64,000 nucleotides of DNA from a virus (lineage: Duplodnaviria; Caudoviricetes), in the IMG/VR virus record IMGVR_UViG_3300049988_000118, positions 9,989 to 73,988 of that record, one strand, 5' to 3'. The translations under genes were made by a program, and so were the position numbers. Of the stretch, positions 13,944 to 32,200 are shown piece after piece; position 1 is the first letter of the stretch; every line of letters starts with the position of its first letter. The notes under the pieces were generated by a model, which did not search any database, was not told where the DNA came from, and was given only the letters and a program-made list of their open reading frames with translations.

Positions 13944-13979
13944 TATGTGCTTTGGGCTAAGCCCTTCGTAAATAACGAG

Positions 13980-14003: not shown

Positions 14004-14128
14004 CTGTGGGCGCGCGGGTGGCCTGAGAAGTCTGCCTAAGTCGTTGAAGTCCCATGAGGACCGGCGGCGCCACGCGACATGCGCGCGACATTCGATGCGA
14101 CAACGAACGCGACAAAATCGGAGGGCCT

Positions 14129-14946: not shown

Positions 14947-14949
14947 CCC

Positions 14950-15456: not shown

Positions 15457-15569
15457 TGGCTCGCGCACGTCAGCGGGCAGGAGAATGGCCCGCCGGAGCT
15501 GGCGATAGGTTTTAGCCCCGGCAGGTAGCGGGTGCGGGGGAAAGCACTCTTGCGGTGATTCCGAGACAG

Positions 15570-16004: not shown

Positions 16005-16070
16005 ACTCACTCCTTCGGCGCCGGCACCCATACCGCGCTCTGCTTCCCATTCATATCGGAGCATCTCAGC

Positions 16071-16469: not shown

Positions 16470-18763
16470 CGACCGCCGCCGCGGGTGAGCGCCCGCCGAA
16501 ACCCGCCTATCAGCCCTTCACCGGCCTGCCGGACTTGCCGGCGCTGTGCGAGATGCGCGCCCGGCCTCAGTGGCTTGCCTGGGACTACGTGTGGCGCCCG
16601 GAAAAGGCGAAGTGGGACAAGCCCCCAATGAACGCCCGGACGGGCGGGGCCGGCTCGTCAACCGACGCCTCGACGTGGTCCACCTATGACCAGGCCGCGG
16701 CGCGTGCCTCTCGTGAGGGGCTGCCAGGCGTCGGCTACGTCCTGTCGCCGGAGGTCGAGGACAGCGGTGTCGACCTCGACAAGTGCCGCGATCCCGAGAC
16801 GGGTATACTTCAGGCATGGGCGCAGGTGGCCGTCGATTTCGCCGAGACCTACACCGAGGTGTCGCCGTCCGGTCGCGGGCTGCGCTTCTTCGTCAAGGGG
16901 TTAGTCGACGGTCGCAAGATCGATGCGGCCCAAGTGGAGATCTACACCAAGGGCCGATACCTGACCGTCACCGGGCAGCATATCCCTGGCACGCCCACGG
17001 AGATTCGGGAGGCGCCCCGGCTCATCGCCTACCTTCAGGAGCGCGCCGACCAGTTCCGAGAGGTCGAGCGTGCCGCCGCTGATCGCGCCCGAGAGAACGA
17101 GCGCAAGAAGGCCGAGAAGCATGCCGCCCGCGAGCCCCGCCCTGAGCCGGGCCCGACAGTCAGCGAGCGGGCCTCGGCGAGCGCTCGGCAGCGTGGTCCG
17201 CGCGAGGGCGGCGACTTCTGGCGAACCGTCAACGACCGCGCCCTTGCGAACCTTGGCGCATGGGTCCCGAGCGTGTTCCCCGGCGCCCGTTGGCAGGCTG
17301 GCACAGGCGCCTACCGCGTTGAGCAAAGCGCGCTTGGCGAGGGCTACGAGGAAGACCTGTCCCTGCACCCGGACGGCATTCGGGACTTTGGCAGCGGTGA
17401 CATGGGAGACTCGCGCGACGGCGCGCGGACGCCGATCGACGTGGTGGAAGCCTACCTGCCGGCGAGCGACGCCGCGGCGGCGGCCATGTGGCTGTGCGAT
17501 CGGCTCGGCATCCGGCCCGAGGACATCGGGTGGCGTGGCGGGCGTAACGAGGGTGCGGAGCGCCCGCGGTACGAGGGGCCCCAATCCGATCCGGGCCCCA
17601 CCGCCGAGTCGCCGCCGGCATTCCGGGCGCGTCCGTTCGTGTGGAAGGACCCGCACACCCTGCCGATGCGCGAATGGCTTCTCGGCCGGCACCTGATCCG
17701 AAAATACACGAGCGCCACCGTCTCGCCGGGTGGCCTGGGCAAGTCGTCCATCATCATCGTGGACGCGCTGGCCCTCGTGACGGGTCGCAACCTCATCGGA
17801 CACCAGCCGCATGGACGTCACCGGGCGATGATCTGGAACGGCGAAGACCCGATGGACGAATTGCAGAAGCGCATCACGGCGGCCTGCCTCTATTTCGAGA
17901 TCGACCGGACCGAGATCGAGGGGCGCTTGTTCGTCAACTCCGGACGCGACGACCCGATCACGGTGGCGAGAATGCACAGGGGTGACGTGGTGATTGCCGT
18001 GCCGGTGGTGGACGCTCTTAAGGCGACCATCTTGGCGAACGAGATCGACGTCGTGTTCGTGGACCCGTTCGTGTCCTGCCATGAGGTGACGGAGAACGAC
18101 AACAACGCCATTGATCGTGTGGCGAAGCTGTGGGGCCGGATCGCAGGCGAAACGAATTGCAGCATCGAGCTCGTCCACCATTCGCGGAAAACCGGCGGCG
18201 CCGAGATCACCGTCGAGGACGCGCGCGGCGCCGTGGCTTTGCTCGCCGCGGTTCGCTCGGCCCGGACCCTCAACGGCATGCAAAGGGACGAGGCTGAGAA
18301 GTGGGGTATTACGGATCGCGGGCTGTATTTCCGAGTGGACAACGGCAAGGCAAATCTCGCCCCGCCGCCGTCTGAAGGCTCGGCGTGGTTCAAGAAGCAA
18401 TCCGTTTCCCTCGGCAACGGCGGCAGCGTTGGGAGCATCGTGCTCGACGGTGACAGCGTTGGCGTGGTGGCAGCGTGGGAGCCGCCGAACCCAATGGATG
18501 GCGTGTCAGTCGATGATCTGAGAAAAGCTCAGGCAGCGACAAGGGAAGGCCGCTGGCGCGAGAACTCACAGGCTCGCGACTGGATCGGCAAGCCGATCGC
18601 CTACGCCCTCAGGCTCGACGCAGACAACAAGGCCGACCGCGCCCGCATCAAAGGGATGCTCGCCGTCTGGATGAAGACTGGCATGTTCGTGGCCGTCACC
18701 GGCAAGGACGACAAGGCGATGGACCGGACCTTCATTGAGGTTGGCGAGAGCGCAGTCGACTGA
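16466..18763 (+). CDS. Satellite primase-polymerase fused to AAA_25/RepA-like SF4 helicase
   Basis: Prim-pol N-terminus homologous to 2228-4630; Walker A SPGGLGKSS, VFVDPF, LVHHSRK, DARGA. Confidence 0.85.
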   Translation: MTTAAAGERPPKPAYQPFTGLPDLPALCEMRARPQWLAWDYVWRPEKAKWDKPPMNARTGGAGSSTDASTWSTYDQAAARASREGLPGVGYVLSPEVEDSGVDLDKCRDPETGILQAWAQVAVDFAETYTEVSPSGRGLRFFVKGLVDGRKIDAAQVEIYTKGRYLTVTGQHIPGTPTEIREAPRLIAYLQERADQFREVERAAADRARENERKKAEKHAAREPRPEPGPTVSERASASARQRGPREGGDFWRTVNDRALANLGAWVPSVFPGARWQAGTGAYRVEQSALGEGYEEDLSLHPDGIRDFGSGDMGDSRDGARTPIDVVEAYLPASDAAAAAMWLCDRLGIRPEDIGWRGGRNEGAERPRYEGPQSDPGPTAESPPAFRARPFVWKDPHTLPMREWLLGRHLIRKYTSATVSPGGLGKSSIIIVDALALVTGRNLIGHQPHGRHRAMIWNGEDPMDELQKRITAACLYFEIDRTEIEGRLFVNSGRDDPITVARMHRGDVVIAVPVVDALKATILANEIDVVFVDPFVSCHEVTENDNNAIDRVAKLWGRIAGETNCSIELVHHSRKTGGAEITVEDARGAVALLAAVRSARTLNGMQRDEAEKWGITDRGLYFRVDNGKANLAPPPSEGSAWFKKQSVSLGNGGSVGSIVLDGDSVGVVAAWEPPNPMDGVSVDDLRKAQAATREGRWRENSQARDWIGKPIAYALRLDADNKADRARIKGMLAVWMKTGMFVAVTGKDDKAMDRTFIEVGESAVD

Positions 18764-18765
18764 GC

Positions 18766-18891
18766 TTCCACACCCGAGGTTCGGGCCTTCGCGCGTCCAC
18801 ACCCCACCCCACACCCCTATAGGGGTGGTGGTGTGGAATGGAGTTTCCACACTTCCACACCATTCCACACCACGCCTCGCAAGGTGTGGGA
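18766..18891. repeat. Iteron cluster, putative satellite origin
   Basis: TTCCACAC at 18766, 18845, 18853, 18863; inverted GTGTGGAA at 18831; palindrome ACCCCTATAGGGGT at 18813-18826; directly after the primase stop. Confidence 0.75.
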
Positions 18892-19008
18892 GGCGACGAC
18901 ACGGCATGCTGTCACGATGGCCCTAATGCACGTGGTCGGGGACGATGCGGCTTGATGCATCCCGGGCGACCTGCGGTGTCACCCGGGATACCTGGTTCGT
19001 GAGCGGCG

Positions 19009-19383
19009 CTAGACCCGATTGAACTCGCGTGCGTGCAAGTTGCTACCCGCGCGCACCATCGTCACGTTGAGCCGCTTGAAGCACGCCAGGAAGTCGGCGA
19101 GCGACAGGGGAACGTCGACAGCGACCAGATCGATCGGCCCGTCCTGAGGCATGGCCTTCGTGGCCTCGTCGTAGCTGTTGCCCAGGGCATAGTGGGCCGT
19201 CAGCTTAGTGGACCCGTCTACCTCGCTCTGCCAGAGGTCGAAGGCCACGAGGAAGCGGCCGGCAGGGGCAAGCCCGCGGGCAGCGAGCGTCGCCCCCAAG
19301 TCATCGACGGCGGCATTGTCGGCCGCGGCCGAGCCCTCCCAATCGCCGTACTGCGTCTCAGCCTGCAAGCGCTCCATGACCAT
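19009..19383 (-). CDS. Satellite cargo, unknown function
   Basis: GGAG RBS before ATG 19383; counter-oriented between ori and cos. Confidence 0.55.
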   Translation of the reverse strand: MVMERLQAETQYGDWEGSAAADNAAVDDLGATLAARGLAPAGRFLVAFDLWQSEVDGSTKLTAHYALGNSYDEATKAMPQDGPIDLVAVDVPLSLADFLACFKRLNVTMVRAGSNLHAREFNRV

Positions 19384-19465
19384 GCTCCGTACAACCGTGG
19401 GCGGACGGCATACGACCAAGCGGAGGCCGGGCCTAGGGGCCAAGCGGCGATCGTCACGGAGACCC

Positions 19466-19586
19466 GCACGTTCCTCGGTGGGTAGGCCCTCCGACCCCGC
19501 CCCGCATGCTGCGCCTCACTACCGCAGCGCACAATGGGTCCTCCGGAGACACCCCACCCCTCTGCGGGCAGAGTTGCTCCCGACTT
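19466..19586 (+). repeat. Satellite copy of helper cos region (121 bp identical)
   Basis: Identical to 9856-9976; upstream of satellite terS. Confidence 0.9.
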
Positions 19587-19668
19587 TCGGCTCTCTGCAA
19601 GTTTGCCAAAAATAGGGGGGGCCGCTTCTTTTCGGTCCCTCGAAGCCTCGCTCCCGATGGAGAAACCG

Positions 19669-20187
19669 ATGAACGAGACCGCTTCGAACGCCGAGATGAT
19701 GGAGCTGTTCGGGGTCTCAGACCGGACCGTCGCGAAGCACGCCGCCAGCGGGATATTCGTGCGTGTTGGCCGCGGCCAGTACGACGTGAAGGCCTCGATC
19801 CGCACCTACGCTGAGCACCTCCGCAGCGCCGCATCCGGGCGGCCCAGCACCAACGAAGAGCTGCGAGCCGAGAAGATTCGACTGACCGCCGCCCAAGCTG
19901 ACCGCGCAGAGATGGACCGGGACGCCGAGGCCGAGGTGATGGTCAACGTGAAGGAATTCGACGACGCGTGGGGCCATGAAATCGTCAAGCTTCGGCAGGG
20001 GTTTCTCGGCTTGGCAAATAAGATCGCGGAGGCTCACCCCCACTTCACGCGCCACGAGATCCACACCATCGACGAAGTGATCCGCGCGATGATGGAGCGG
20101 GTTGCCGACGATGCCGATACACGCCTGGAAATCGCTCAGGCCAAAGAAGACAAGGGCGGAAAGTCGCGGCGCCGGTCCCGCCGCTGA
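19669..20187 (+). CDS. Satellite small terminase / Rpp-like (Nu1 family)
   Basis: MMELFGVSDRTV..AASG HTH; EELRAEKIRLTAAQADRAEM coiled coil typical of Nu1; GGAG RBS. Confidence 0.8.
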   Translation: MNETASNAEMMELFGVSDRTVAKHAASGIFVRVGRGQYDVKASIRTYAEHLRSAASGRPSTNEELRAEKIRLTAAQADRAEMDRDAEAEVMVNVKEFDDAWGHEIVKLRQGFLGLANKIAEAHPHFTRHEIHTIDEVIRAMMERVADDADTRLEIAQAKEDKGGKSRRRSRR

Positions 20188-20207
20188 ACGCGTAATTCGA
20201 TTTAATG

Positions 20208-20247
20208 GTTGGTTTTGGTTGGTTTTCCCCGGTCCAAAGTTGGTTTT
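20208..20247 (+). promoter_or_regulatory. Three helically phased direct repeats GTTGGTTTT
   Basis: Copies at 20208, 20218 and 20239 in the only AT-rich gap before the satellite morphogenesis operon. Confidence 0.5.
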
Positions 20248-20288
20248 CTCTCGTTGAATTAGGCCCTCGTCCGCCGGACACTTCCGGC

Positions 20289-20636
20289 ATGACAACCGCC
20301 AGCTTCCCCCGCTTCAGCACAACGCTGGACCACGAGACGGCCCGCGCCGTCACCCTCGCCGCCGCCGAACGGATGCAGAGTCGCGCCGACTTCATTCGTG
20401 ACGCGGTGGCCCACGAACTGAGCGTCCGACAGGCCGCCGCCGACGCCGTGCGATCCGAGGTCGAGCGCCAGGGAGCCGCCGCCCGCCGCCTCACCGCCGC
20501 ACTGGATCGGGGGCCGGGTGCAACCTCCCGTCTCACCGCCTCGCGCGTCGCCGCGCTCGCCCGGCCGGCCGCGCACACCATCCCCAACATCTCCACCCTC
20601 GACGCGGCCGAAGCCGCCGGAAAGGCATGCCCATGA
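20289..20636 (+). CDS. Ribbon-helix-helix-like regulator
   Basis: RFSTTLD beta-strand followed by two helices (..SRADFIRDAV). Confidence 0.5.
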   Translation: MTTASFPRFSTTLDHETARAVTLAAAERMQSRADFIRDAVAHELSVRQAAADAVRSEVERQGAAARRLTAALDRGPGATSRLTASRVAALARPAAHTIPNISTLDAAEAAGKACP

Positions 20637-21718
20637 AATCGCCGACGAAGCTGCTCAAGGCCACCGCCACGGCGTTCGGCCTTGCCCGTAAGGCCACCGA
20701 CGCCGAGGTCATCGAGGCTGCAATCGCGGAGGCACGCACGGCCATTGCGGAGGGCGAGCGCGACGGGGCCGAGGCCCAAGCGCGCTACGACGAATCCCTG
20801 CTCGCCGATGACGGCGACCCGGCCTTGATGCTCAACGCGATCCAGGCCGCCAAGATCAAGCGGGACCGCGGCGAGGCCCAGGTGGCCACCCTCACCGTGC
20901 GCCTGAACGATGTGCGGGAGGCCAGCGAGCAAGAACGCCGCGGCGCGATCTATCGGGATGCGGAGGCAAAAGCCGAAGCCGCCCGCGTTGCCCTGGTTCA
21001 GGAATACCCCGCCATCGCCCGACAGATGCATGGGCTACTCCGGCTTCTGGCCGAAGCCGAGATCAGGGTAGCGCAGGCGAACGCGGACCTACCGCACGGG
21101 GCCGCGCCCATCGCTTCGCCCGAGTGGCAGGTTCGGTATCCCGGGGCCAACCTGCCGCCGCTGCCGGCCCCAACGATGGTGAAGCTTTGGGCGCCCATGG
21201 GTGGAAGCGAGCCCGTGCCGGAGGAAGACCAGCAACGGGTTCGCCCGATGCCCGGTCGAGCGGAGTGGGTCGGCGCCCTCCGGCGTGATGACGGCTCCAC
21301 GCTGGAGTGTCATCGCCGTACCTTTCGGAAGTCGCTGGAATACGAGAAGCCCCACGGGGATTGGGGCACCAATCTGGCCGGGTCCGTGTGCCTGCCGGCC
21401 CTGTATCCCTTCACCCCGCCCGTGTGGCCGCAGAACCTCATCAACGGCAAGACATTCGACCGATCTGCTGATGTTGCGCTGTCGACCTTGGATGATGTTG
21501 AGCCCCTGAGCGCGGCAGTCTGGCGACGAGCGGAGGCGATTTTGAAGGTCGTCACCCGCTTCCGGGAGGAGGGCCGCCCCCTCAACGTAGTGGACGACGG
21601 AGCACCGCGCGTACCGCGCCACCAGCCTGTCACGGATCTCGCCCTTCGCCACCAGCCTGTCACGGATCTCGCCCTTTACGACGAGGATGACGGCGAAGCG
21701 GAGGGCGAGGCAGCATGA
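20633..21718 (+). CDS. Satellite protein with long helical/coiled-coil N-terminus, unknown function
   Basis: Ala/Glu/Arg-rich N-terminal half; ATGA coupling both sides. Confidence 0.65.
   Translation: MKSPTKLLKATATAFGLARKATDAEVIEAAIAEARTAIAEGERDGAEAQARYDESLLADDGDPALMLNAIQAAKIKRDRGEAQVATLTVRLNDVREASEQERRGAIYRDAEAKAEAARVALVQEYPAIARQMHGLLRLLAEAEIRVAQANADLPHGAAPIASPEWQVRYPGANLPPLPAPTMVKLWAPMGGSEPVPEEDQQRVRPMPGRAEWVGALRRDDGSTLECHRRTFRKSLEYEKPHGDWGTNLAGSVCLPALYPFTPPVWPQNLINGKTFDRSADVALSTLDDVEPLSAAVWRRAEAILKVVTRFREEGRPLNVVDDGAPRVPRHQPVTDLALRHQPVTDLALYDEDDGEAEGEAA
21617..21676 (+). repeat. 30-bp perfect tandem duplication (RHQPVTDLAL x2)
   Basis: CGCCACCAGCCTGTCACGGATCTCGCCCTT twice. Confidence 0.95.
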
Positions 21719-21978
21719 TGCGCGTCGTGCCGAAAGTCGATGGCGCCGAAGACGAACGGCGGGCGGCCAAGCGCCAACGGCTCACCGAAACCCTGGCCCT
21801 GCCGGAAGCGCAGGGCAGGGGCAACCTCCTCCCCTTCGCCCTGGCGTGCCGTTTCGATCTTCCCATGGCCCGCGTGAAGCAAGCCCTGGTCGACGCACCC
21901 GAGATGACCGACCCGAACGAAGTTGCCGAGTGGGCGGAGGCATACCCCGTCCGCTCAAAACTGGAGATCGTGAAATGA
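21715..21978 (+). CDS. Small protein resembling the lambda Nu3/gpC scaffold motif
   Basis: LALPEAQGR...L..AP pattern; coupled to the protease gene. Confidence 0.45.
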   Translation: MMRVVPKVDGAEDERRAAKRQRLTETLALPEAQGRGNLLPFALACRFDLPMARVKQALVDAPEMTDPNEVAEWAEAYPVRSKLEIVK

Positions 21979-23231
21979 ACGACTACGATGGCCGCCGCCT
22001 GATCTGCGAAGGTGCCTTGGTCCTCTATGGTGACGTGGGCGAGGCCGGATGGGCGGACGTCGATGGCTTCACCGCCTCCGATGTGCTGTTCGCGCTCGCG
22101 GAGATCGGCGCAGACCGTGACGTGACGGTGCGGATCAACTCTGGCGGCGGCAATGCCTTCGAGGGCCTCGCCATCCACGCGATCCTCTCGGCGCACCGCG
22201 GCAAGATCACCACCGTAGTCGAGGGCATCGCCGCGTCCGCCGCCTCCATCATCGCGATGGCGGGGAAGGACCGGATCGTCGCGCCCGGGTCGCTCATGAT
22301 GATCCACGACCCGTCGGGCCTGACGGTCGGCACGGCGGACGATCACGACGACACCGCCGCCATGCTGCGCACCCTGTCGGATGCGCTTGCGACCGTCTAC
22401 GCGACCGCCACCGGCCGAGCGAAGGCCGTCATCCTGGAGGAGATGAAGGCCGAGACGTGGCTCGACGCCGACGAATCCCTTGCCCGGCGGTACGCCACGG
22501 CGATCGGAACCGCCCCCGCCTCGACCGCCATGCTCCCGTTTCCGTTCGGAGCCTATGCGAAGGCACCCGCCCACCTCGTCGCCCTTGCGGAAACGAAGGG
22601 GTGGAGCGCCCGCCAGTTCACCGCCTCGCACGCCCTGGGCAAGTCGCGTTCCGAGCGCCACGCCGCTGCACCGCGCTCCTTCGATAAGGCGGCCACCGCG
22701 TCGGCGCCTGACGCCATCGCCCAGACGTGCGCTCTTGCCGGGTGCCCGGAGAGGGCCGCCGAGTTCATTGCGGCTGGGGCGTCGTCGGCCGACGTAGCGA
22801 AGCAGCTGCTAGCGGAAGCGGTGACCGGCACGGCCACCCAGGGCGCGAGCCAGAACCGTCTGTCTCGCGCCGATTCGGCGTCGGTCGCGACCCTGTGTCT
22901 CGACGCGAGCATTCCCGAGATGACGCCGACCATCCTCGCCCGAGCCACCACCGTGGATCAGGCCAAGGCGCTGATCCAGACCGGCACCGAAATGAAGGAC
23001 GTCGTGACCCTGGCGCGCCGGCACTGCCCGAGCGTGCCCGAGGATTTGGCGGTCACAGCGTTCGCCGCCGGAAAGACGGTCAAGCAGGTCCGCGACGAGG
23101 CCGTGAACCTGATGGCGGAAGAGGGCGACCGAACCGAAGTCCAGGGGAGCCGCCACCCCGCCGCGATCAATTCCGGCCCCGGGGCGGCGAAGCGGAACAT
23201 GCTGGCCCAACTCGCGCGGGCCACCCGCTGA
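21975..23231 (+). CDS. Satellite ClpP-like head maturation protease with scaffold extension
   Basis: INSGGG, GIAASAAS, MMIHDP, ETWLDA; paralog of 32215-33423. Confidence 0.9.
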   Translation: MNDYDGRRLICEGALVLYGDVGEAGWADVDGFTASDVLFALAEIGADRDVTVRINSGGGNAFEGLAIHAILSAHRGKITTVVEGIAASAASIIAMAGKDRIVAPGSLMMIHDPSGLTVGTADDHDDTAAMLRTLSDALATVYATATGRAKAVILEEMKAETWLDADESLARRYATAIGTAPASTAMLPFPFGAYAKAPAHLVALAETKGWSARQFTASHALGKSRSERHAAAPRSFDKAATASAPDAIAQTCALAGCPERAAEFIAAGASSADVAKQLLAEAVTGTATQGASQNRLSRADSASVATLCLDASIPEMTPTILARATTVDQAKALIQTGTEMKDVVTLARRHCPSVPEDLAVTAFAAGKTVKQVRDEAVNLMAEEGDRTEVQGSRHPAAINSGPGAAKRNMLAQLARATR

Positions 23232-23422
23232 TGGCCCTGGCAACCTCCGCCCTCCGCGTCCGCATCGTGGACACCCCGTCGGCCGGCGCTCTCCTCGACC
23301 TCGCCGACCGCTTGCGCCGACTCGCCCCGTCGCCCCGCGATCCGGAGCGCTTCCACGTCGAGAAGTCCGAGATTGAGGGCGAACTGCGCCGGCTCGCCCT
23401 GCCGCCCGCCCGGAGATCCTAA
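23231..23422 (+). CDS. Small satellite hypothetical protein (63 aa)
   Basis: TGATG coupling; LRRLAPSPRDPERFHVEKSEI. Confidence 0.55.
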   Translation: MALATSALRVRIVDTPSAGALLDLADRLRRLAPSPRDPERFHVEKSEIEGELRRLALPPARRS

Positions 23423-23425
23423 ACA

Positions 23426-23955
23426 ATGCCCAAAAGCTCCACTCGGAAGCGCGCCCCTGCCGCGCGGTCCCCCGCCCCGGACCTCCCGCCGCCGCGCTTC
23501 GTCATGCCGGTGCCGGATCATACCGTTCCGCTGATCCACCCGGTCGAGTACGCCGGCCGAACCTTCGCCAGCATCACCCGTCGACGCCCGTCTAGCGCCG
23601 TGCTGGGCCGGTGGTTCGAGCAGTTCACCGAGGGCGCGGCGGTCCCGGGCGACACGAATCTCAACGTGCCGATTTTCGTCGACGAGGCCGGCGACCTCGT
23701 ACCGGATGCGGTGCTCGGCTTTCTCGACGACGATGACCGGCAGGTCGTGTTCGAGGATGCTGACCGTTTTTTTCCCAAGCGGCTCGCGGTTGCCCTGGAA
23801 GCTCTGACGCAGGACTCAGCCCCTTCGTCTGGCGAACCTGCCGAGCCGACATCATCCGCTTGATAGGGGGCTCGCGGGCTGAGCTCGACGCCATGACCTG
23901 GGGCGAGTTCACCCGCGAGTGGTTCGAAGCCAAACGCGTTTCTGAGGGCCGCTGA
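23426..23955 (+). CDS. Satellite tail assembly chaperone (gpE-like, 23426-23863) with -1 frameshift extension to 23955
   Basis: Homologous to 48451-48834; T7 slippery run at 23767-23773; -1 frame open to TGA 23953-23955. Confidence 0.85.
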
Positions 23956-23956
23956 G

Positions 23957-26647
23957 ATGTCGACACGCACCGCAACCCTGATCGCCAACTTGGTCGATCA
24001 GGTCTCAGGTCCGGCCAAGGGCATGGCCGGCGCCCTGAAAAGCACCGCATCCGCCCTCGATGCACTGAAGGCCAAGGCCGGCAAGATCGACGCCTTCAAG
24101 CAGGCGAGCAAGTCGCTGGACGACGCCGCGCAGAAGTTCAGGCTGGCGCAGCAGAACGTGCGCAAGATCAAGGCCGAGATGGAGGCCGGCGGCGACGGCG
24201 CCAAAAAGCTCGGGAGCGCGCTGAAGGGCGCCGAGCGCAACGCCGATGCGGCGCGGGCCGCGTTCAAGAATCAGGGGCAGGAGGTCCGCGCGTTGCGCAC
24301 CGCCCTGGAGCAGGCCGGCGTGCCGCTCAACGCGCTCGCCGCGCACGAGCGCCAGTTGCAGACCCAGATCAACCACACCACCGAGGCGCTCAAGCGACGG
24401 AAGAAGGCGCTTGCGGATGTTGGCGCCGGGGCGCCGGCGAGCCGGATGGGGCCAGCCGCAGGCGGGCACGGGCCTCAAGCAGGGCGCGGGGGCGGTGGCA
24501 CGGGCGCCGCCGGGAGCGCCGTAGTGGGCGCCGGCGTGGCGCGCTTCGGCGTGGCAGCGGCCGGAATCGGTGGGGGTGCCTACATCATCGGCGATCAGAT
24601 CCGCCGGGCTGCGAAGTCGTCGATAGATTTCGAGCGCAGCATGATCGAGGTCGGCAAGGCCACCGACGCATCAGGGGCCGATCTCGAAAAATACTCCGAG
24701 GGCATCCTGGCGCTGGCCCGCGCCACCGGCAAGACGAAGGAAGACCTCGCCTCGATGCTCTCCTCGGCGGGCTTTGCCGGCCGCCCGAAGGAGGAGCTAA
24801 TGAACTTCACCGAGTACGCGGCGAAAGCGACCGTGGCTTGGGGCACGAGCGCCGAAGACACCGGCCAGGCGTTGGCCGAGATCGGCAACATCTACGACGC
24901 GAATCAGAAGCGCATCGAGGAGATCGGCGACGCGATCAACACGATGGCGGACAGCTCGGCATCGAAGGAATCCGACCTACTCGACTTCATGCGTCGGGCG
25001 GGTGCCTCGTCGAAGCAGGCCGGCATCTCAGCCGAGCATATGCTGGCGTTCGGCGCCTCGATGAAGGAAGTGGGCGTCCGGACCGACGTGGCCGCCACCG
25101 GCTTCGAGGCACTCCTGAACGTGATGAAGCTCGGCGAGGAGTTTTCGAAGAAAGCAGGCGAAGGTCTGAAGGATCTCGGCGTCAACTCCACCAAGATGCG
25201 CAAGGCGTTCGTCGCCAAGCCGGTCGAGACGATGCTTGGCCTGCTGGAAAAGATCAACAAGGTCGCGGACCCGCTCAAGAAAGCGGAGATTATGACCAAC
25301 CTTTTTGGCAAGGAATATCAGGACGACATCGCCAAGATGCTCAACGCCTTGCCGAAGGTGAACAAGTACATCGGCATCATGAGCGATCAGGCGAAGATTG
25401 CCGCCGGTGGCGTCCGGTTCCAGTTCGGTCAGAACCTCGACAAGGACGTGTCGAAGATCGACCGGGCCACGCAATCCATCGACGTTCTCTACAAGCGCAT
25501 CGGCGACCCGATCAAGATCCAGATCGGCGGCATCTCCGAGCAGGTCAATACGCTCGTCGACAGCCTGGAAAAGGGCGACACGATCCTTCAGCGCCTGGTG
25601 AAGCGCCTCAACGGCGGCGAAGCTGGCAAGCCGATCGAGCTGCCCGAAATGAATGGCGAAGGCGGCCTGGAAAAATGGTTCGAGGAAAAGCTGCCCTGGC
25701 TGAGCGGCAAGAAGTGGAACGACGAGGTCGACAAGCGGATCGGCAAGACCGGCGCTGACACGGACCGGATGAACCGCGAGGACGCCGACGGGCGGCGCGC
25801 CGCGGCCGAGCGGGAGGTGCTCGACCGCCCGGCCGACATCGAGACGAAGATCCAGCGCCAGCGCCGCGCACAGGATCAGGCCCGGCGGGAAGCGGTCGGG
25901 GCTACGGGGATGCGGCGCTCGCTGGCGGTGGAGCAGATCGGCAAGTCCGACGCCGAGGTGAAGCGCTTGGAGGGCGAGCTTGCCAAGGCTTGGGAGGCGA
26001 TCGGAGCCCTTCGCGCTCAGCACAAGCGGGACAAGGGGGCGTTCAGCGTCGACGGTCCGGCTGCGAAGGACGTGGAGACCATCGGCCCGGGCCGCTTCGG
26101 GCTTGGCCTACACGGCACGGACGTGCTGCCCTCGCGCCGGGTGCCGCTACCGCCGCCGCGACCCGCAGGGCTGACGCCCGGCGCAGAAATCACCATGCCG
26201 GAGATCAAGGTCGAGGTGGACACCTCCGGCTTCGATGAGGCCAGCCGCAAGGCCGATGAACTCGGTGCGCGGACCATCGCGCCGAAGGGCGACGGCGCCG
26301 GCTTGGCCCCCATCGGGACAGCGGCCGACGAGGCCAAGGCGAAGCTCTCTGAAATCAATGCCACCACCGTCACACCGAAGGGAGATGCCGCAGGGCTCGC
26401 GCCGCTCGGGACGGCCGCCGACGAAGCCAAGGCAAAGCTTTCGGCCCTCGCCGGGGTGAGCGTCGCGCCGACCGTCGACGCCTCATCCATCGCGGCGGCA
26501 GAAACCGCAGTAGATCGCCTCCTGGCGAAAATCGCCCGGGTCGGCCCAGCCCTGAAAGGCGCCAACGGGGCTGTTGCCTCGGGTGTCGTCCGTTCCGGCA
26601 ACGTCGCCCAGCGCCTCCAGAACACTTTCACCGACAAGGGGATGTGA
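23957..26647 (+). CDS. Satellite tail tape measure protein (896 aa)
   Basis: TP901-type core (SIDFERSMIEVGK...); N- and C-termini match helper TMP; follows chaperone. Confidence 0.92.
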   Translation: MSTRTATLIANLVDQVSGPAKGMAGALKSTASALDALKAKAGKIDAFKQASKSLDDAAQKFRLAQQNVRKIKAEMEAGGDGAKKLGSALKGAERNADAARAAFKNQGQEVRALRTALEQAGVPLNALAAHERQLQTQINHTTEALKRRKKALADVGAGAPASRMGPAAGGHGPQAGRGGGGTGAAGSAVVGAGVARFGVAAAGIGGGAYIIGDQIRRAAKSSIDFERSMIEVGKATDASGADLEKYSEGILALARATGKTKEDLASMLSSAGFAGRPKEELMNFTEYAAKATVAWGTSAEDTGQALAEIGNIYDANQKRIEEIGDAINTMADSSASKESDLLDFMRRAGASSKQAGISAEHMLAFGASMKEVGVRTDVAATGFEALLNVMKLGEEFSKKAGEGLKDLGVNSTKMRKAFVAKPVETMLGLLEKINKVADPLKKAEIMTNLFGKEYQDDIAKMLNALPKVNKYIGIMSDQAKIAAGGVRFQFGQNLDKDVSKIDRATQSIDVLYKRIGDPIKIQIGGISEQVNTLVDSLEKGDTILQRLVKRLNGGEAGKPIELPEMNGEGGLEKWFEEKLPWLSGKKWNDEVDKRIGKTGADTDRMNREDADGRRAAAEREVLDRPADIETKIQRQRRAQDQARREAVGATGMRRSLAVEQIGKSDAEVKRLEGELAKAWEAIGALRAQHKRDKGAFSVDGPAAKDVETIGPGRFGLGLHGTDVLPSRRVPLPPPRPAGLTPGAEITMPEIKVEVDTSGFDEASRKADELGARTIAPKGDGAGLAPIGTAADEAKAKLSEINATTVTPKGDAAGLAPLGTAADEAKAKLSALAGVSVAPTVDASSIAAAETAVDRLLAKIARVGPALKGANGAVASGVVRSGNVAQRLQNTFTDKGM

Positions 26648-26705
26648 CGACGGCAGTCGGCCGCGCAGAGACGGTCAGTAAATGGCTTGTGACGATCTGG
26701 GCAGC

Positions 26706-27050
26706 CTACCGCGCGTCCACGATGCGACAGGACGCGGCGCCGAGAGTTTTCCCGTCCGCCTCGGCGATGCCGATGAAGTTCCGGCCTGTGACGGTAGCGC
26801 CCGGTTTGATGTTGCGGATAACCGAGGCCGCTTCACCCACGGGAGACCCGCCCGGACTTGCTACGGAGCAACTGACCTCGGCGACCTCCACCCGCGCCGA
26901 GCCGGCATTCCTCACCTGAATCACGGTCTCGACGGTCTCGCCGATGGCGCGCGGGCGTCCGGCCGTGACCGAGAGGTCATCCGCCATCCCCGCCGCGTGT
27001 GCGGCGTACGATGACACGATCAGAGCGAGGGCGAGCAGGGCAGGGCGCAT
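26706..27050 (-). CDS. Secreted protein (FxLYD-like Ig fold)
   Basis: Signal peptide MRPALLALALIVSSYAAHA; V.N.G..V...V.C...G pattern. Confidence 0.55.
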   Translation of the reverse strand: MRPALLALALIVSSYAAHAAGMADDLSVTAGRPRAIGETVETVIQVRNAGSARVEVAEVSCSVASPGGSPVGEAASVIRNIKPGATVTGRNFIGIAEADGKTLGAASCRIVDAR

Positions 27051-27093
27051 GCCGGCAAGATAGCCGCCGGGGTGCAGTTGTCGAGACTAGCCC

Positions 27094-27246
27094 TCAACCG
27101 CGTACGGCATGCTGTTCACCCGCCGGGGCAGGCCGCTCGGCATGTGGATGCTTCCGGTTGAATCGGTACTTCAGCAGCGCGAAAAAACCGCCGCCTCCGA
27201 CCACTGCCAAGCCGAGAGCGGACCATAGGAGCAGGGTAGGTGTCAC
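27094..27246 (-). CDS. 50-aa single-TM protein (not in ORF track)
   Basis: GAGGAG RBS + GTG; MTPTLLLWSALGLAVVGGGGFFALLKYRFNRKHPH... Confidence 0.55.
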   Translation of the reverse strand: MTPTLLLWSALGLAVVGGGGFFALLKYRFNRKHPHAERPAPAGEQHAVRG

Positions 27247-27249
27247 GGA

Positions 27250-27621
27250 TCACTCCTCTGATTGCATCACAAGGAAATTTAGAACGTACGGGAAGATATG
27301 GAAGCCCAAAGAAATAACACACCATTGAACCGCGTTTCCGTCCAGAACCGCATCCGCGTCCCGAACGAACGGCACGATCGCCGCTGCCCCTAGAATGCCG
27401 GCCGCGAGAGTGTTGCAGAGCGCGTTGAAGTGCTTGAGGCACTCATTGATGCGCTTGGCGTCAAGCTTCCGCAATGCTGGGTTATCAGACGATGGCGGCG
27501 GTTTTCCTGAACCAAAACTTGGAGAATTTATTTTTCGAGCCAGTGCCTCTGCTTCACCTTCAGCGAAGCTGTCAATCGATCGAAGGGGTGTTGTGCTTTT
27601 CTTAATGGCGCCAGTCATCAA
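27250..27621 (-). CDS. Membrane protein, two TM segments (cargo)
   Basis: Hydrophobic segments in C-terminal half; AT-rich. Confidence 0.5.
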   Translation of the reverse strand: MMTGAIKKSTTPLRSIDSFAEGEAEALARKINSPSFGSGKPPPSSDNPALRKLDAKRINECLKHFNALCNTLAAGILGAAAIVPFVRDADAVLDGNAVQWCVISLGFHIFPYVLNFLVMQSEE

Positions 27622-27986
27622 CGTGACTGCCTTAAGATATTATAATTCATCAAATAAATCTCTCCCTTCGACGATCTAAAGGACATGATCACGAAGGATA
27701 GATAAAACTTGTGCGTTTCATCTTGAGCAAAGCTTTGGGTAATTCGCGCTCCGGTCGAGATTATATTGTCTCGACTTCGACGATGCACAAGAGATAGTAT
27801 TTGATCATCGTCCAATTGAATTGTGGTTTCGGTATCCGTGCTTTCGTCGATACTCAACTTAAATCTGAATCGATATTCAGGATCGTCGTCGAAGGGCATC
27901 ATAACGATGGTTTCTTCGGCGCCAAGAATAATTGAGCCTGAATGAATCAGCTCTCTTTTTCCGACTATGGCAGTGGGCCGAGTCAT
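27618..27986 (-). CDS. Cargo protein, unknown (possibly DUF6864-like)
   Basis: AT-rich; start at MTRPTAIV; overlaps the next gene by 4 nt. Confidence 0.5.
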   Translation of the reverse strand: MTRPTAIVGKRELIHSGSIILGAEETIVMMPFDDDPEYRFRFKLSIDESTDTETTIQLDDDQILSLVHRRSRDNIISTGARITQSFAQDETHKFYLSFVIMSFRSSKGEIYLMNYNILRQSR

Positions 27987-28224
27987 ATGCAGATCCCAAG
28001 CGCGATCGGTGGGCAAGCCGCACACGGCTCGATCCAAGCGCTGTGCCTCTACCCTACGCGCACGACGAAACCCCCATCGCCTTGCAGGGCGTGGGGTTGT
28101 CGTGTCATGATGAACGTAGAGCCTGAGAACTCTCGCGACGGTCCCTTGCAGGGGATAGCGTCGCATCCTGTGACGGAAGCCCAACACCTTGCAGGGTGAT
28201 GTGCCCCGTAATGAACGTGCTCAC

Positions 28225-28395
28225 CTCCCGGTGAGCGCGACCGGCTCACTATGCCGGGAGTGCGGCGACACGGTCAAGCAGAAATGCTCGACTGCGATAC
28301 AAGAGCCCTTCGGGGTAAAGGTCGCCGCGCACGTTCTCACAGGCGTGTTCTCAGCCTCCCGGCGCCAGCACCGCATGCTGGCGTGGCCGAAAGCC
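28225..28395 (+). ncRNA. Candidate structured immunity RNA (P4 CI / P1 c4-like)
   Basis: Multiple stems, plus GTTCTCACAGG and GTTCTCAG segments complementary to flanking upstream and downstream repeats. Confidence 0.45.
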
Positions 28396-28457
28396 CCTGA
28401 GAAGGCTCGAGGCCCCGGCCCTGAGAAGCCGGTTCGTACCTGTGAGAACCGAGATCC

Positions 28458-29147
28458 ATGACCACCACACAGACCCGCACGGCGCCTTCCCGGCGCGTGC
28501 CGCCGGCTGCCCGTCAGCCCGGCCCGGTGACGCTCGCCATACGCGCGCTGCGCCCGAACGAAGCCCCCACCTGGGAACAGCGTCAACGGGAGATCGATGC
28601 GGAGGAGCGGGCCACCCTGCGCGCCCTTCGCAAGCGCGTCGCTCAAGCCGTGTCGGACGGCATCGATTTCCTTGACGCAACCGGCAGGGATCCGGACCTC
28701 GATGCGGACTACACGACCACTGAGCGCGCCCCGGACGGCGGCCTACACACCGTCGGCCGCAGCACCGATGACGAGCCGAGCCTATGTGGCATCGGCGGCC
28801 ACTTCGCGTTCGGGCATCAGCACGAGTTCCCGCAGACGGGTGGCGGCTGCGGTGAAAACGCCCACGACCTTGAGGGTGAGGACGAGCACGGGAGCGACTG
28901 CGACCGTGGGGAGGATTCGCTAGGCTCGCTCGGGGGCACCGCAAATGCTGTCGGCCACTCCCAACTGAATTGGGCGGGCGGCGGTGCGAACGATCTGGAG
29001 GCCGTGGACGAGGACGGCGGCGATATCCAAGACGCCCCTCACGATGGTGACGAGCGCGAGGACGGCGACGACAACGGCATCGGCGACCTTGAAGGCTTGC
29101 ACGAACAGTTCGCCGGCACCCGGTACGCCTTCGCTGGTGCCGTATGA
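28458..29147 (+). CDS. Satellite hypothetical protein, acidic Gly/Asp-rich C-terminus
   Basis: ORF track; first gene after the structured leader. Confidence 0.55.
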   Translation: MTTTQTRTAPSRRVPPAARQPGPVTLAIRALRPNEAPTWEQRQREIDAEERATLRALRKRVAQAVSDGIDFLDATGRDPDLDADYTTTERAPDGGLHTVGRSTDDEPSLCGIGGHFAFGHQHEFPQTGGGCGENAHDLEGEDEHGSDCDRGEDSLGSLGGTANAVGHSQLNWAGGGANDLEAVDEDGGDIQDAPHDGDEREDGDDNGIGDLEGLHEQFAGTRYAFAGAV

Positions 29148-29605
29148 GCGCCCCCGCATCGCGCCGGGGATTCCTCTCCGGTCTCGCCGTCCTGCCGTCT
29201 CTCACGGTAGTGGCAACTGCCGCTGCAAGCCCCGACGCGCCGTTACTTGATTTGGCGCCGCGCCTTGTCCCGCTGCTGGACCGATACGACCGGCTTTGGG
29301 CGGCGCAGGGTGGCACCTACGAGGCCGGCATCGCTGAAGTGCAGCGAGCAACGAGGAGAGGGGCATCTTGGGGGGAGGCACAATCGGCTTCTCCCTTGTG
29401 GCGGAAGTACATGAGCGCCAGGGCGCCGGCCGATCGCATAGGGGACATAATCGACCCTCTGATTGAACCTTTATGGGATCATCGCGCGGTCACCGTGCCG
29501 GGCCTGTTACTCAAAGCCAGGATCGCCGCGACCTTCGATAGCTGGGAAGGCGACGTCTTCGATGACGTTCGCGCCATGGTGAAGGCAGGTACTCTCCTGA
29601 CTTAA
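29144..29605 (+). CDS. Satellite hypothetical protein with twin-arginine-like N-terminus
   Basis: SRRGFLSGLAVL; ATGA coupling. Confidence 0.55.
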   Translation: MSAPASRRGFLSGLAVLPSLTVVATAAASPDAPLLDLAPRLVPLLDRYDRLWAAQGGTYEAGIAEVQRATRRGASWGEAQSASPLWRKYMSARAPADRIGDIIDPLIEPLWDHRAVTVPGLLLKARIAATFDSWEGDVFDDVRAMVKAGTLLT

Positions 29606-29760
29606 CCCCCGGCCCGGCCGCCCGCACGGACGCCTCAGATCTGAGGGCGCGGTGCCGTACCGCGCCAATCCGGAGCCCGGCCGGGCCTCACGAACGCCGC
29701 TCGCGCAATCCCGCGCGGGCGGCATTCGCCGTACCGCACGGCGCAATTCGTGAGGATGCC

Positions 29761-30549
29761 ATGACCACGACACCCACGGTCCACATCACCGACGGCAAAC
29801 CCATGGCGGACAGCCGTGAGATCGCCGCCACTTTCGGCCGGCAGCACAAAGACGTGCTCCGAGCCTATCGAGAGCTCGCATGCTCCGCGGATTTCAGGCA
29901 GCGCAATTTTGCGCCGTTTCATTCCAAGGACTTAAGCGGGTCCACCCTCTCCCACGTCCTGATGACCAAGAACGGGTTCGCCTTCCTCGTCCTCGGCTTC
30001 ACCGGCGCGCCGGCCGCCGTCTTCAAGGAGGCGTACATCGAGCGGTTCGACGCGATGGAGGAGGCGCTACGGGGCAAGGCGATCCTGGCCGTTCCGACCA
30101 CCTTCGCCGAGGCCCTACAGCTTGCCGCCGACAACCAACGGCAGGTTGAAGCGCAGGCCGCACAGATCGCCGTCCTGGCCCCACGCAGCGAGGCCCTGGC
30201 GACCATCGCCGACGGGGAGGGGACGTTCTGCATCCGCGACGCGGCCAAGATGCTTCAGGTCACGGAAAGCGGCCTGACGGCCTACCTGTCGGGCAACGAC
30301 TGGATCTATCGACGCGAGCCCGGCGGGCCATGGGTGGCGACCGCCCGGCGGTTCGGACAGGGCTGGATCACCACGAAGGTGATTCCGGTCGAGGTCGGCA
30401 ACGGCAAGGTCTGGAACAAGCCGCAGGCCCGCATCACGAGCGCCGGCTTGACGGTCCTGGCGATGCGCTTGGGCAAGCCCGTGCCGGCGGGCCTCGCAGC
30501 ATCGGCCCCGCTCATCGAACACGCGGCTCGGCCGCAGGGAGGACACTGA
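29761..30549 (+). CDS. Rha-family regulator fused to ANT/KilAC antirepressor domain
   Basis: DSREIAATFGRQHKDVLRA, MTKNGFAFLVLGFTG..A..FKEAYIERF; then VPTTFAEALQLAAD and IRDAAKML...RITSAGL. Confidence 0.88.
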   Translation: MTTTPTVHITDGKPMADSREIAATFGRQHKDVLRAYRELACSADFRQRNFAPFHSKDLSGSTLSHVLMTKNGFAFLVLGFTGAPAAVFKEAYIERFDAMEEALRGKAILAVPTTFAEALQLAADNQRQVEAQAAQIAVLAPRSEALATIADGEGTFCIRDAAKMLQVTESGLTAYLSGNDWIYRREPGGPWVATARRFGQGWITTKVIPVEVGNGKVWNKPQARITSAGLTVLAMRLGKPVPAGLAASAPLIEHAARPQGGH

Positions 30550-30550
30550 G

Positions 30551-31753
30551 ATGGCGAGCGTCAGGAAGCTCAAGAAGGATGACCCCGCGTCTCCATGGAT
30601 CGTTGAATACACGGACCCGTCGACGGGCAAGCGGGTGCGCAAGACCCCTAAGTCGGGACTGAAAAAGGACGCCGATGCCCTGCGTCGGAAGATCGAGGCG
30701 GAGATCGATGGAGGCATTCACACCGCCCCTTCGACCTCGCCCACGATCGCTGACCTGGGCGACACCTTCGTTCGGAACGCGGCGGAGCGCCTATCGGACG
30801 GCCGGATCGGGCGAAGCCGTTATGCCATCATCGTCTACACGGTGGAGAATTGCCTAAAACCGCACCTTGGTCGCATGAAGCTTTGTGGCCTGAAGCGCGA
30901 GGACGTGGAGGGCTGGTATAACTGGCTGCGCAAGGAAAAGAAGCTTGCCCCGGTCACGTCGAAAGGGCGGGTCATCATTTTCCAGATGATCGAGGACTTT
31001 GCGGTCCGCCGGTCATGGACGAAGCTGACGCCGGTGCGCGACTACCTCAAGGATCTCACCGGCATCCGGCAATCACGTGTGCGGACCTTCAGCGCGGAGC
31101 AGGCCGCGCAGGTGCTCGCGACTGCCGCCCATCGAGCCCCCGGCTTCAAGCTGCGGGCGCACGCCTACACCGAATGCATGGTTAACCTCGCGGCTTGCTG
31201 TGGCCTCCGGTACGGGGAGATCCTGGGATTGTCCCTCGATGACGTGTTCTTCGATGACCGGCGCCTCTACATCCGGCACAGCCTCACGGACTGGGACGAG
31301 TTAAAGGGGCCGAAGACAGTCGCCGGCGTCCGCAACATTCCTTTGCCGCAGCACGTCGCTGACATGCTCACGGCCTGGATCGCCAACGGCTACGTGGCGA
31401 ACGAGCGCCGGTTGCTGTTCCGGACATCATCGGGCGGCATCATCAGTGCCGCGAGCTTCCACAAGGCGACGTGGGGGCCGTTGCTGATCCGTGCAGGGCT
31501 CGGCGAAGGGAAGCGTTTCCACTTCCACGCCCTGCGCCATTTCGCGTCGAGCTGGATGATCGCGAACGGCCTGCCCGTGACCGACGTGGCGCGCCTCATG
31601 GGGCACAGCCATTTCGACACGACGCTCCAGGTCTACGCGCACCCGGTCATCGCGAACCACCGGCACCAGGAGGCTTTCGACCGGATGGCGAGCAATCTGA
31701 AGCTGGAATTGCCTGCGCCAGGGGAGACCTCGCGCGACATGGCGCCGGCCTGA
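30551..31753 (+). CDS. int: Tyrosine integrase (satellite)
   Basis: Intact catalytic set: GLRYGE (R), KTVAG (K), FHALRH (HxxR), MGH, QVY (Y); ends 70 nt before attR. Confidence 0.95.
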   Translation: MASVRKLKKDDPASPWIVEYTDPSTGKRVRKTPKSGLKKDADALRRKIEAEIDGGIHTAPSTSPTIADLGDTFVRNAAERLSDGRIGRSRYAIIVYTVENCLKPHLGRMKLCGLKREDVEGWYNWLRKEKKLAPVTSKGRVIIFQMIEDFAVRRSWTKLTPVRDYLKDLTGIRQSRVRTFSAEQAAQVLATAAHRAPGFKLRAHAYTECMVNLAACCGLRYGEILGLSLDDVFFDDRRLYIRHSLTDWDELKGPKTVAGVRNIPLPQHVADMLTAWIANGYVANERRLLFRTSSGGIISAASFHKATWGPLLIRAGLGEGKRFHFHALRHFASSWMIANGLPVTDVARLMGHSHFDTTLQVYAHPVIANHRHQEAFDRMASNLKLELPAPGETSRDMAPA

Positions 31754-31823
31754 ACGCGACATAAATGCGGATGCGGCTGGACGCATCCAGCGTTTTCAAT
31801 GACTTAGCACATGGGTAAGAGTT

Positions 31824-31833
31824 AACATCAGAC
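31824..31833 (+). repeat. attR core AACATCAGAC
   Basis: Matches 13934-13943; portal frame resumes right after. Confidence 0.92.
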
Positions 31834-32200
31834 GCTCGTGTTCCAACTGTGCCGGCCGGTCTGGGCGCGCTGGATCGCGACCGCCGCGCTTGCCGGCTCC
31901 ATCCCGGGGCTGACGCCGGCGACCTTCGCCCGCAATCGCGCGGCGCTTTCGACGGTGAAGTGGCAGCCCCCGAAGTGGGACTGGGTCGATCCGCTAAAAG
32001 ACCTCAAGGCCGACGAGCTCGCGATCAAGATGGGCATCCTGCCCAGGTCGGACGCGATCGAGGCCCGCGGCGGCGACGCCGAAGAGGTCGATGCGCGGCG
32101 CAAGGAAGACCAGGACCGCGCCAACAGCCTCGAGCTTCGGCTCGACGGCGGCACGGTCGACGATCCGAACCCGGTCACCGACGCCGCTGACGCGGCCTGA
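31834..32200 (+). CDS. Portal protein 3' segment
   Basis: LVFQLCRPVW..WQPPKWDWVDPLKD..G.LPRSDAIEARGGDAEEV; in frame with the 5' segment after excision. Confidence 0.95.

Follow-up and report, generated by a model that had tools for sequence, protein, structure and literature searches.

A mosaic tape measure protein with helper-like ends, encoded by a satellite inside the portal gene of a P2-tailed prophage

How does a satellite that has no tube, sheath or baseplate genes come to carry a gene for a tape measure protein (TMP), and could that protein be built into the tails of its helper? The question is raised by a 64,000-nucleotide stretch of viral DNA, bases 9989-73988 of the 73,988-base IMG/VR virus record IMGVR_UViG_3300049988_000118 and hereafter called the window. 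In it, a 17.9-kb integrase-bearing element (positions 13944-31833) splits the portal gene of a Methylobacterium prophage. The element encodes a TMP, here TMP1 (23957-26647, + strand; 896 amino acids), alongside a tail assembly chaperone of its own, and the prophage encodes a second TMP, here TMP2 (48936-51842, + strand; 968 amino acids). In the present work, we examine the ends, the centre and the ancestry of TMP1 by comparison with TMP2 and with related proteins. We find it probable that TMP1 is a working satellite-encoded tape measure, mosaic in structure, made together with its own frameshifting chaperone from a late operon, and able to replace TMP2 in the tails of the helper.

The element interrupts the portal gene at a 10-bp direct repeat, AACATCAGAC, whose two copies are the attachment (att) cores. 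The left part of the portal gene runs from about 12775 to 13943 and ends in seven foreign codons and a stop, the frame stopping just after the attL core (13934-13943, + strand). Beyond the attR core (31824-31833, + strand) the portal reading frame resumes in a 120-residue piece (31834-32200) that is 62% identical to the C-terminus of the intact portal of locus L007. Excision of the element should restore the portal. Scans of 13944-31833 returned an integrase (30551-31753) and no major capsid, portal, large terminase, sheath, tube or baseplate genes. This lack of structural genes leads us to accept the element as a satellite inside its helper.

That both proteins are tape measures, as an earlier note on this DNA had proposed together with their lengths, is borne out by the open reading frames (ORFs) and by two protein families. 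Both match phrog_28 (E-value 7.5e-67 for TMP1), and the PhageMin_Tail core PF10145 scores 109.5 bits in TMP1 (residues 251-451; 24707-25309, + strand) and 40.9 bits in TMP2 (residues 310-516), against a Pfam cut-off of 33.2. The lengths differ by 72 residues. The note had also described helper-like ends, and pairwise comparison agrees: identical residues number 20 of 28 in the N-terminal motif (type N1; 23957-24040, + strand), which is common to the P2-type TMPs of the group, and 13 of 16 at the C-terminus (C-end type A; 26597-26644, + strand). With the match probability set to 0.25, against a background of 23% in the centre, the binomial tails are 3e-7 and 4e-6, respectively, so that the similarity of the ends goes beyond chance. 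At the DNA level the ends had been called near-identical, which was too strong: nucleotide identity is 62.5% over the first 40 codons and 76.7% over the last 20, and one 29-nucleotide run with a single mismatch is the sole near-identical DNA between the two genes.

The centres were said not to align. Their identity is indeed low, with a mean of 23% and 17-42% per 40-residue window, and BLASTP joins the two proteins only over the C-terminal 91 residues (44%, E-value 1e-10) and in a weak N-terminal alignment; the centres are nevertheless related, since both hold the PF10145 domain. A hydrophobic, glycine-rich segment lies near the C-terminus in TMP2 (residues 767-793) and near the N-terminus in TMP1 (residues 183-212).

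The origin of the C-terminal end can be followed in more distant company. Full-length relatives of TMP1 were found by database search in Methylobacterium. Over residues 1-800, TMP1 is 94-95% identical overall to the proteins P0003 and P0004 (85-100% in most 40-residue windows, and above 90% in the greater part). Past residue 800 the identity to this pair drops to 17-43%, and that to P0127 and P0176 rises from about 20-30% to 81-92% and 67-92%, respectively. The boundary is sharp and falls at about residue 800, within a unit that many of these TMPs have once and TMP1 has twice. The two 31-residue units, at residues 776-806 (26282-26374) and 807-837 (26375-26467), both on the + strand, are read as the junction of two parental TMP lineages. 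A period of about 33 residues, given previously, has to be corrected to 31, with two clear copies; Tandem Repeats Finder did not call the repeat in TMP1. Copy 1 continues the P0003/P0004 lineage, its DNA agreeing with the units of L010 (P0003) and L005 (P0004) at 63 and 61 of 72 positions, compared with 53 and 54 for copy 2, and from copy 2 onward the protein aligns with P0127 and P0176. Between the two copies, 21 of the first 23 residues are identical and 67 of 99 nucleotides. Since the protein is nearly the same but the DNA has diverged, with copy 1 nearer to the satellite lineage, we interpret the repeat as the scar of an unequal crossover between diverged tmp genes. A recent duplication in place was also considered, and was rejected because the copies differ at 32 of 99 nucleotides in spite of their near-identical first 23 residues.

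As judged from these alignments, TMP1 is shown to be a mosaic, in which residues 1 to about 800 come from the satellite lineage and the last 97 or so (residues 800-896; 26354-26644, + strand) were acquired by unequal crossover. The same alignments show the crossover to have lain within a motif that many TMPs share, to have left the 31-residue duplication, and to have given TMP1 a type A end like that of TMP2. The lineage of residues 1-800, a stretch that takes in the centre matched to the chaperone, is common to other Methylobacterium satellites and to at least one complete P2-type tail cluster. The C-terminal module is rare: with residues 770-896 as the query, only 7 proteins among 5.8 billion were retrieved, P0127 and P0176 first.

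Such exchange is not confined to TMP1. The satellite TMPs of loci L005 and L012 are 23% identical over their first 700 residues and 96% over the last 100, and from these unrelated centres with a shared end it follows that C-terminal modules move between backbones. P0176 follows the L012 satellite TMP up to residue 880, at 75-100% identity, and then has a type A end. TMP2 is itself a mosaic, with residues 1-160 87-100% identical to P0127 and a centre 62-85% identical to P0120 and P0121; the centre of P0127 in turn matches the satellite TMP of L020 at 72-90%. The database names of P0176, P0218 and P0013 place all three in strain OTU13CASTA1. The end of P0218 is identical to that of TMP2, and P0013 combines a TMP1-type centre with a type-B-like subterminal part and A-like last 17 residues.

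We now turn to the gene directly upstream of TMP1, which encodes a gpE-like tail assembly chaperone (23426-23863, + strand; 145 amino acids in the zero frame). It contains a slippery run of seven T (23767-23773), and the E'-like extension in the -1 frame (23767-23955, + strand) ends 1 nucleotide before the TMP1 start codon. The helper chaperone (48379-48834, + strand; -1 extension to 48932) has the slippery run TTTTTTG at 48750-48756, and in satellite and helper alike the -1 frame stays open until 1-3 nucleotides before the TMP start codon. The satellite chaperone is 32% identical to that of the helper (E-value 2e-16), and 90%, 84% and 61% identical to those of L005, L010 and the tail cluster L011. 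The -1 extensions of satellite and helper agree at 26 of 58 residues (45%), and at about 57% over the last 37, which is above the level of the chaperone bodies. The TMP of lambda is bound by the chaperones G and GT, and it is the T domain added by frameshifting that recruits the tube protein; the P2 pair E/E' is taken as homologous. The better conservation of the extension would thus fit a satellite chaperone that still recruits the tube protein of the helper.

TMP1 is the last gene of a rightward morphogenesis operon and has a G+C content of 0.85 at third codon positions. No terminator-like site was seen on the + strand in 19000-28500, nor any notable promoter or terminator signal around the gene. 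It is followed by unrelated small ORFs and not by homologues of gpU, gpX and gpD; TMP1 is a detached part of a P2-type tail module and no full member of it. Over residues 1-800 the ratio of nonsynonymous to synonymous substitutions (dN/dS) is 0.082 against P0004 of L005 and 0.076 against P0003 of L010, at a dS of 0.34-0.40. By these ratios TMP1 is an intact, functional gene under strong purifying selection.

Other satellite TMPs of the family have similar surroundings. P0004 (L005/L006), P0003 (L010) and P0202 (L012) all lie in compact elements without capsid or other tail genes, with a shared layout of replication genes, an HTH_17 protein, conserved small genes (including a relative of a 363-residue protein of the window satellite), chaperone, TMP and cargo. 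An integrase is present in L005/L006 and in L010, and none in the L012 stretch that was read. The L010 element is flanked by ordinary chromosomal genes. P0202 is annotated from a start about 98 codons too late. Read from L012:7272, where the family's N-terminal motif begins the frame, it has 954 residues. Right after the TMP, L012 carries cargo of a defence type (L012:10299-15015; genome G402, contig C5), namely a DNA methylase, a Z1-domain protein, a Vsr endonuclease and a Lit-like Peptidase_U49 protein.

One could suppose that the window element is a decaying prophage remnant and TMP1 a leftover without present function, for which the lack of major capsid, portal, large terminase, sheath, tube and baseplate genes might be quoted. 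However, at least four elements (window, L005/L006, L010 and L012) have the common compact layout with all ORFs open, and three of the four (window, L005/L006 and L010) have an integrase. A dN/dS of 0.08, the preserved frameshift signal and the precision with which the 10-bp att repeat splits the helper portal are equally hard to reconcile with decay, and we regard a remnant as very improbable.

A relative of the 363-residue protein occurs in 32 of 146 Methylobacterium species genomes. Among 18 such loci that were fetched, 8 have a TMP-like gene nearby, and the helper's sheath, tube, gpU, gpX and gpD, used as queries, had matches in none. L023 and L024 (genome G409, contig C3, 1-38021) are two copies of a satellite-like block about 19.4 kb apart, each with a relative of the 363-residue protein, a chaperone and a 1326-residue TMP; the elements may stand in tandem, or the assembly may have repeated one of them. 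A locus search based on TMP1 gave nothing in viral contigs and two distant, centre-only matches in genome contigs, and 401 genomes of the family of a Bosea metagenome-assembled genome gave only distant centre matches to TMP1.

The evidence that a TMP of this kind can serve in a tail like that of the helper comes from L011. There, P0005, 65% identical to TMP1 over its whole length, stands in a complete P2-type tail cluster (P0219 likewise lies in a complete P2-type cluster, L013, and P0016 in a complete Mu-type cluster, L007). In both the helper and L011 the gene order is chaperone with -1 frameshift, TMP, gpU, gpX and gpD. The sheath and tube of L011 are 86% and 85% identical to those of the helper, and its gpU, gpX and gpD 65%, 69% and 66%. 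Its chaperone and TMP are 61% and 65% identical to those of the satellite, and have only local BLAST matches of 31-32% to those of the helper. A helper-like tail with a cassette of the TMP1 type means that chaperone and TMP are exchangeable as a cassette in this phage lineage, and the native use of such a cassette by L011 makes the use of TMP1 in helper tails credible.

What, then, would decide whether a given TMP fits a given tail? N- and C-end types were defined across about 215 collected TMPs. The N1 motif, which is also found in P0003-P0009, P0005, P0110, P0118 and others, goes with C-ends A-D and adjoins gpU/gpX/gpD hubs in the window, L011 and L014. N2 proteins instead have C-ends of types F and G, and the one in L007, with N2 and F, stands next to a Mu-type hub. 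Both families of TMP centres occur with both sets of ends. The end types thus co-vary with each other and with the type of hub independently of the centre, so that it is the ends, and not the centre, that follow the tail machine. The closest relatives of TMP1 end in type C (P0003) and type B (P0004), and TMP1 in type A like TMP2. Type-A C-ends occur in very few of the 146 Methylobacterium species genomes.

The helper genes that follow TMP2 encode a gpU-like tube initiator (51846-52292), a gpX-like protein (52300-52539) and a gpD-like hub (52547-53590), all on the + strand and recognised by PHROGs (phrog_76, phrog_46 and phrog_52 for the trio), and their roles are taken from a cryo-electron microscopy preprint on P2. 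In that structure a trimer of gpD forms the hub and a hexamer of gpU, which initiates the tube, sits on it as a cap, with gpX as a peripheral glue. The TMP runs in the lumen of the tube, and towards the spike, within gpU6/gpD3, it becomes a three-helix bundle. By analogy, helper gpU and gpD are presumed to be the surroundings of the TMP C-terminus. The earlier note had listed gpX beside gpU and gpD for structure prediction with the TMP ends; gpX is an unlikely docking partner because it is a peripheral glue protein in P2. When TMP1 residues 826-896 were modelled together with helper gpD, gpU and gpX, the score was 0.00, below the mark, and, obtained without controls, it counts neither way.

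On this basis we propose the following mechanism. The N1 motif and the type-A C-terminus of TMP1 would contact tail components encoded by the helper: the C-terminus probably points towards the spike within the lumen formed by gpU, the tube initiator, and the gpD hub, and the N1 motif may meet a conserved head-proximal partner. The private centre of TMP1 would be handled by the satellite chaperone, whose frameshift extension would recruit the helper tube protein. If the ends do make these contacts, TMP1 could for that reason stand in for TMP2 at the core of the tail, with the tube and sheath of the helper polymerising on it, and chimeric tails would result. Chimeric tails at this locus are plausible by analogy with known satellites. 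More tentatively, TMP ends may be exchangeable adaptor cassettes in which the last 17-100 residues or so decide the fit to the hub, such that a single crossover with the tmp gene of the helper, or with a related one, retargets a satellite; this generalisation is possible, though we would not yet call it likely.

It is important to point out what speaks against TMP1 as a working replacement for TMP2. The N-terminal match is family-wide and holds nothing specific to this helper, TMP1 being identical to P0005 at 21 of 28 positions and to the helper at 20. Residues 800-880 are only 32-35% identical to TMP2, of which only the last 20 residues or so match, and are closer to P0127 and P0176; the donor of the C-terminal module may itself have been a satellite. 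In genome G402 the ends are mismatched: the L012 satellite there, of type B, stands beside a prophage TMP that is 93% identical to TMP2 and of type A (its sheath and tube are 88-90% identical to those of the helper), a third TMP of the genome is of yet another type, and a type-B phage was not found in G402. Genomes G454, G493 and G504 gave no other TMP of the satellite-TMP kind, and searches of G454, G493, G409, G504, G496 and G180 with PF10145 and satellite TMPs gave no co-resident TMP whose ends match. Nor can satellites be told from phages by the length of their TMPs.

Several of these points would be expected if the similarity of the ends reflected shared ancestry in one mosaic pool of TMPs, with the cassette freely exchanged and the C-terminal match coincidental rather than adaptive. 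The family-wide N-terminal motif, the mosaic structure of every TMP examined, TMP2 included, the mismatch in G402 and the non-helper origin of residues 800-880 all accord with such a pool. It explains less well why TMP1 has type A, the type of its resident helper, when its two closest relatives have B and C, and why in strain OTU13CASTA1 three TMP backbones all end in type A or an A-like type when their nearest relatives elsewhere have type B. That end types track the hub type also counts against coincidence, and we consider this explanation unlikely. As to the claim of the earlier note that TMP1 docks in helper tails, one part is upheld, namely by the type-A end shared with the helper, the L011 cassette and the precedent of PLE11 discussed below; the N-terminal match, the affinity of residues 800-880 to P0127/P0176 and the G402 mismatch weaken the other part or leave it without support.

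A further alternative accepts that TMP1 is functional and makes interference its main task, with use in satellite particles secondary. As a dominant-negative core, or one that diverts parts, TMP1 would then compete with TMP2 for the tube, hub and terminator proteins of the helper and lower its yield, perhaps aided by a satellite factor that acts against the helper TMP. Satellites commonly disturb the assembly of their helpers. Besides its own TMP, PLE11 has Rta, which inhibits the TMP of its helper, and the prophage protein Tab targets TMPs with a sensitivity that maps to the TMP C-terminus; the helper-type ends, different centre and own chaperone of TMP1 would suit such a competitor. However, no Rta- or Tab-like gene was recognised in the window. 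The small ORFs adjoining TMP1 have no match in PHROGs or Pfam (nor have the conserved small genes of L005), and those after TMP1 are not conserved in L005, L010 and L012. A pure inhibitor, moreover, needs neither an intact 896-residue ruler under a dN/dS of 0.08 nor a frameshifting chaperone. Interference as the principal role therefore seems distinctly unlikely to us.

Returning to TMP1 as a replacement for TMP2, we can ask what tail would be made. The lambda TMP corresponds to 0.15 nm of tail length per residue. The 72 missing residues amount to about 11 nm at this ratio and to about 8 nm at that of PLE11 (95 residues, 10 nm), and, given the usual scaling of length with residue count, the chimeric tails would be shorter by about 8-11 nm, which equals two to three rings of the tube. 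The shorter length, stressed in the earlier note, turns out not to be a trait of the family: satellite TMPs of the TMP1 family have 848-954 residues and TMPs in complete tail clusters 836-968. Because these ranges overlap, tail length is unlikely to be the point of the satellite TMP. The gain for the satellite might be, for example, independence or escape from TMP-directed blocks, or interference with the helper; competition with the helper and evasion of defence, as raised in the earlier note, are conjectures.

The remaining genes of the window, which has a G+C content of about 66% and nearly all its genes on the + strand, give the following picture. PHROGs scans identify the helper as a myophage with an HK97-type head and a P2-type tail. 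It encodes helicase, primase and antiterminator, and in its early region a block of low G+C content (0.50 against about 0.66; 4627-6384, minus strand) holds two minus-strand genes, one for a 412-residue regulator with helix-turn-helix (HTH) and ImmA/IrrE-like metalloprotease parts (phrog_2439, phrog_87) and one for a 172-residue protein of phrog_11126; the block looks like an acquired moron or defence pair. The small and large terminase subunits TerS (9896-10633) and TerL (10617-12518) precede the portal, and the head protease (32215-33423) and major capsid protein (33813-34859) follow it. Baseplate proteins J and I, a tail fibre, the sheath (45169-46428) and the tube (46476-47009) are also encoded. 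Between tube and chaperone, at 47010-47942 on the minus strand, lies a 310-residue gene with nuclease-like and membrane-protein-like PHROG matches, and unrelated minus-strand ORFs occupy the same position in L011 (9045-9398) and L013 (8067-8561); the gap right before the chaperone-TMP cassette is thus a possible hotspot for morons.

Within the satellite, the genes besides those for the chaperone, TMP1 and integrase encode a primase-helicase (16313-18763), a TerS (19534-20187), a ribbon-helix-helix protein, the 363-residue protein, which is without known family, and a protease-scaffold protein, the second in the window (21687-23231). An exact 30-nucleotide tandem duplication (21617-21676) lies at the 3' end of the 363-residue protein gene, before the protease-scaffold gene. 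Downstream of TMP1 are small unassigned ORFs and a gene for an Ant/Rha-type protein.

The significance of the locus is that it separates the parts of a satellite tape measure that are helper-like, i.e. the 28-residue N-terminal motif, the last 17-20 residues or so and the frameshift extension of the chaperone, from those that are free to differ, i.e. a centre of about 750 residues and the chaperone body. The C-terminal end was installed by a traceable crossover, which leads to directly testable domain-swap predictions in a genus that is culturable and harmless, and phages and satellites are shown to share one recombining pool of tape measure modules. If TMP ends are indeed exchangeable adaptor cassettes, this would explain in concrete terms how helper tails come to accept a satellite TMP, and the private centre would make satellite tails independent of, or insensitive to, agents that act on the helper TMP.

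Such agents exist. Tab of the Pseudomonas phage JBD26 targets TMPs, with a sensitivity that maps to the TMP C-terminus (PMC10884400), Rta of PLE11 blocks the phage TMP (PMC12987554), and the exclusion by HK97 gp15 is, as cited in PMC11364771, a TMP-directed block. They make the TMP a target in conflicts between phages and between satellites and phages. Unlike in those systems, no such inhibitor was identified in this window; by inference, a conflict aimed at the TMP may be the reason for the different centre of a TMP that a satellite brings along.

In its gene arrangement TMP1 resembles the P2 module of gpE/E' and gpT, of which it keeps the chaperone, the frameshift and the end motifs; unlike that module, the satellite version is reduced to chaperone and TMP. 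By its family, TMP1 belongs to PF10145, with a TP901-type core. In gene content the element can be likened to the EPIPs, satellites of the Mycolicibacterium aichiense prophage HerbertWM that carry a TMP and alter tail length as seen by electron microscopy (bioRxiv 2025, PMC12822802), and to some cf-PICIs, for which putative tmp genes are listed together with those of PLE-like elements (PMC12987554, Extended Data Fig. 10). The helpers of EPIPs, however, are siphophages and EPIP tails are longer and variable, and cf-PICIs make their own capsids.

The closest comparison, by mechanism and not by descent, is with the PLEs of Vibrio cholerae, in which satellite tape measures were first shown to work, in 2025-2026. 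PLE11, PLE1 and PLE4 encode a TMP, a tail assembly chaperone (TAC) and in some cases the hub protein BhuB, and form chimeric tails with phage ICP1 (Mathur, Boyd et al., Nature 2026, PMC12987554). The PLE TMP is present in PLE virions and that of ICP1 excluded; the TMP and TAC of PLE11 are incorporated, and with a TMP 95 residues shorter the tails are 10 nm shorter. The mechanism of this selective incorporation was called unknown in the same study. As in the PLEs, a satellite without sheath, tube and baseplate genes here has its own TMP and chaperone, the helper has a contractile tail, and the satellite TMP is shorter (by 95 residues in PLE11 and 72 here), with a predicted tail about 10 nm shorter. 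Unlike in the PLEs, neither a hub gene nor an Rta-like inhibitor was recognised here, the host is an alphaproteobacterium, and the helper is a temperate prophage with P2-type tail and HK97-type head that holds the satellite inside its portal gene. Incorporation was shown there and is proposed here. PLE TMPs are, moreover, about 20% identical to that of ICP1, with no conserved ends reported, whereas TMP1 has helper-like ends and a recombinant C-terminal module. Chimeric tails with a satellite TMP have thus already been demonstrated for the PLEs; what the present locus adds is a readable anatomy of ends, centre and crossover.

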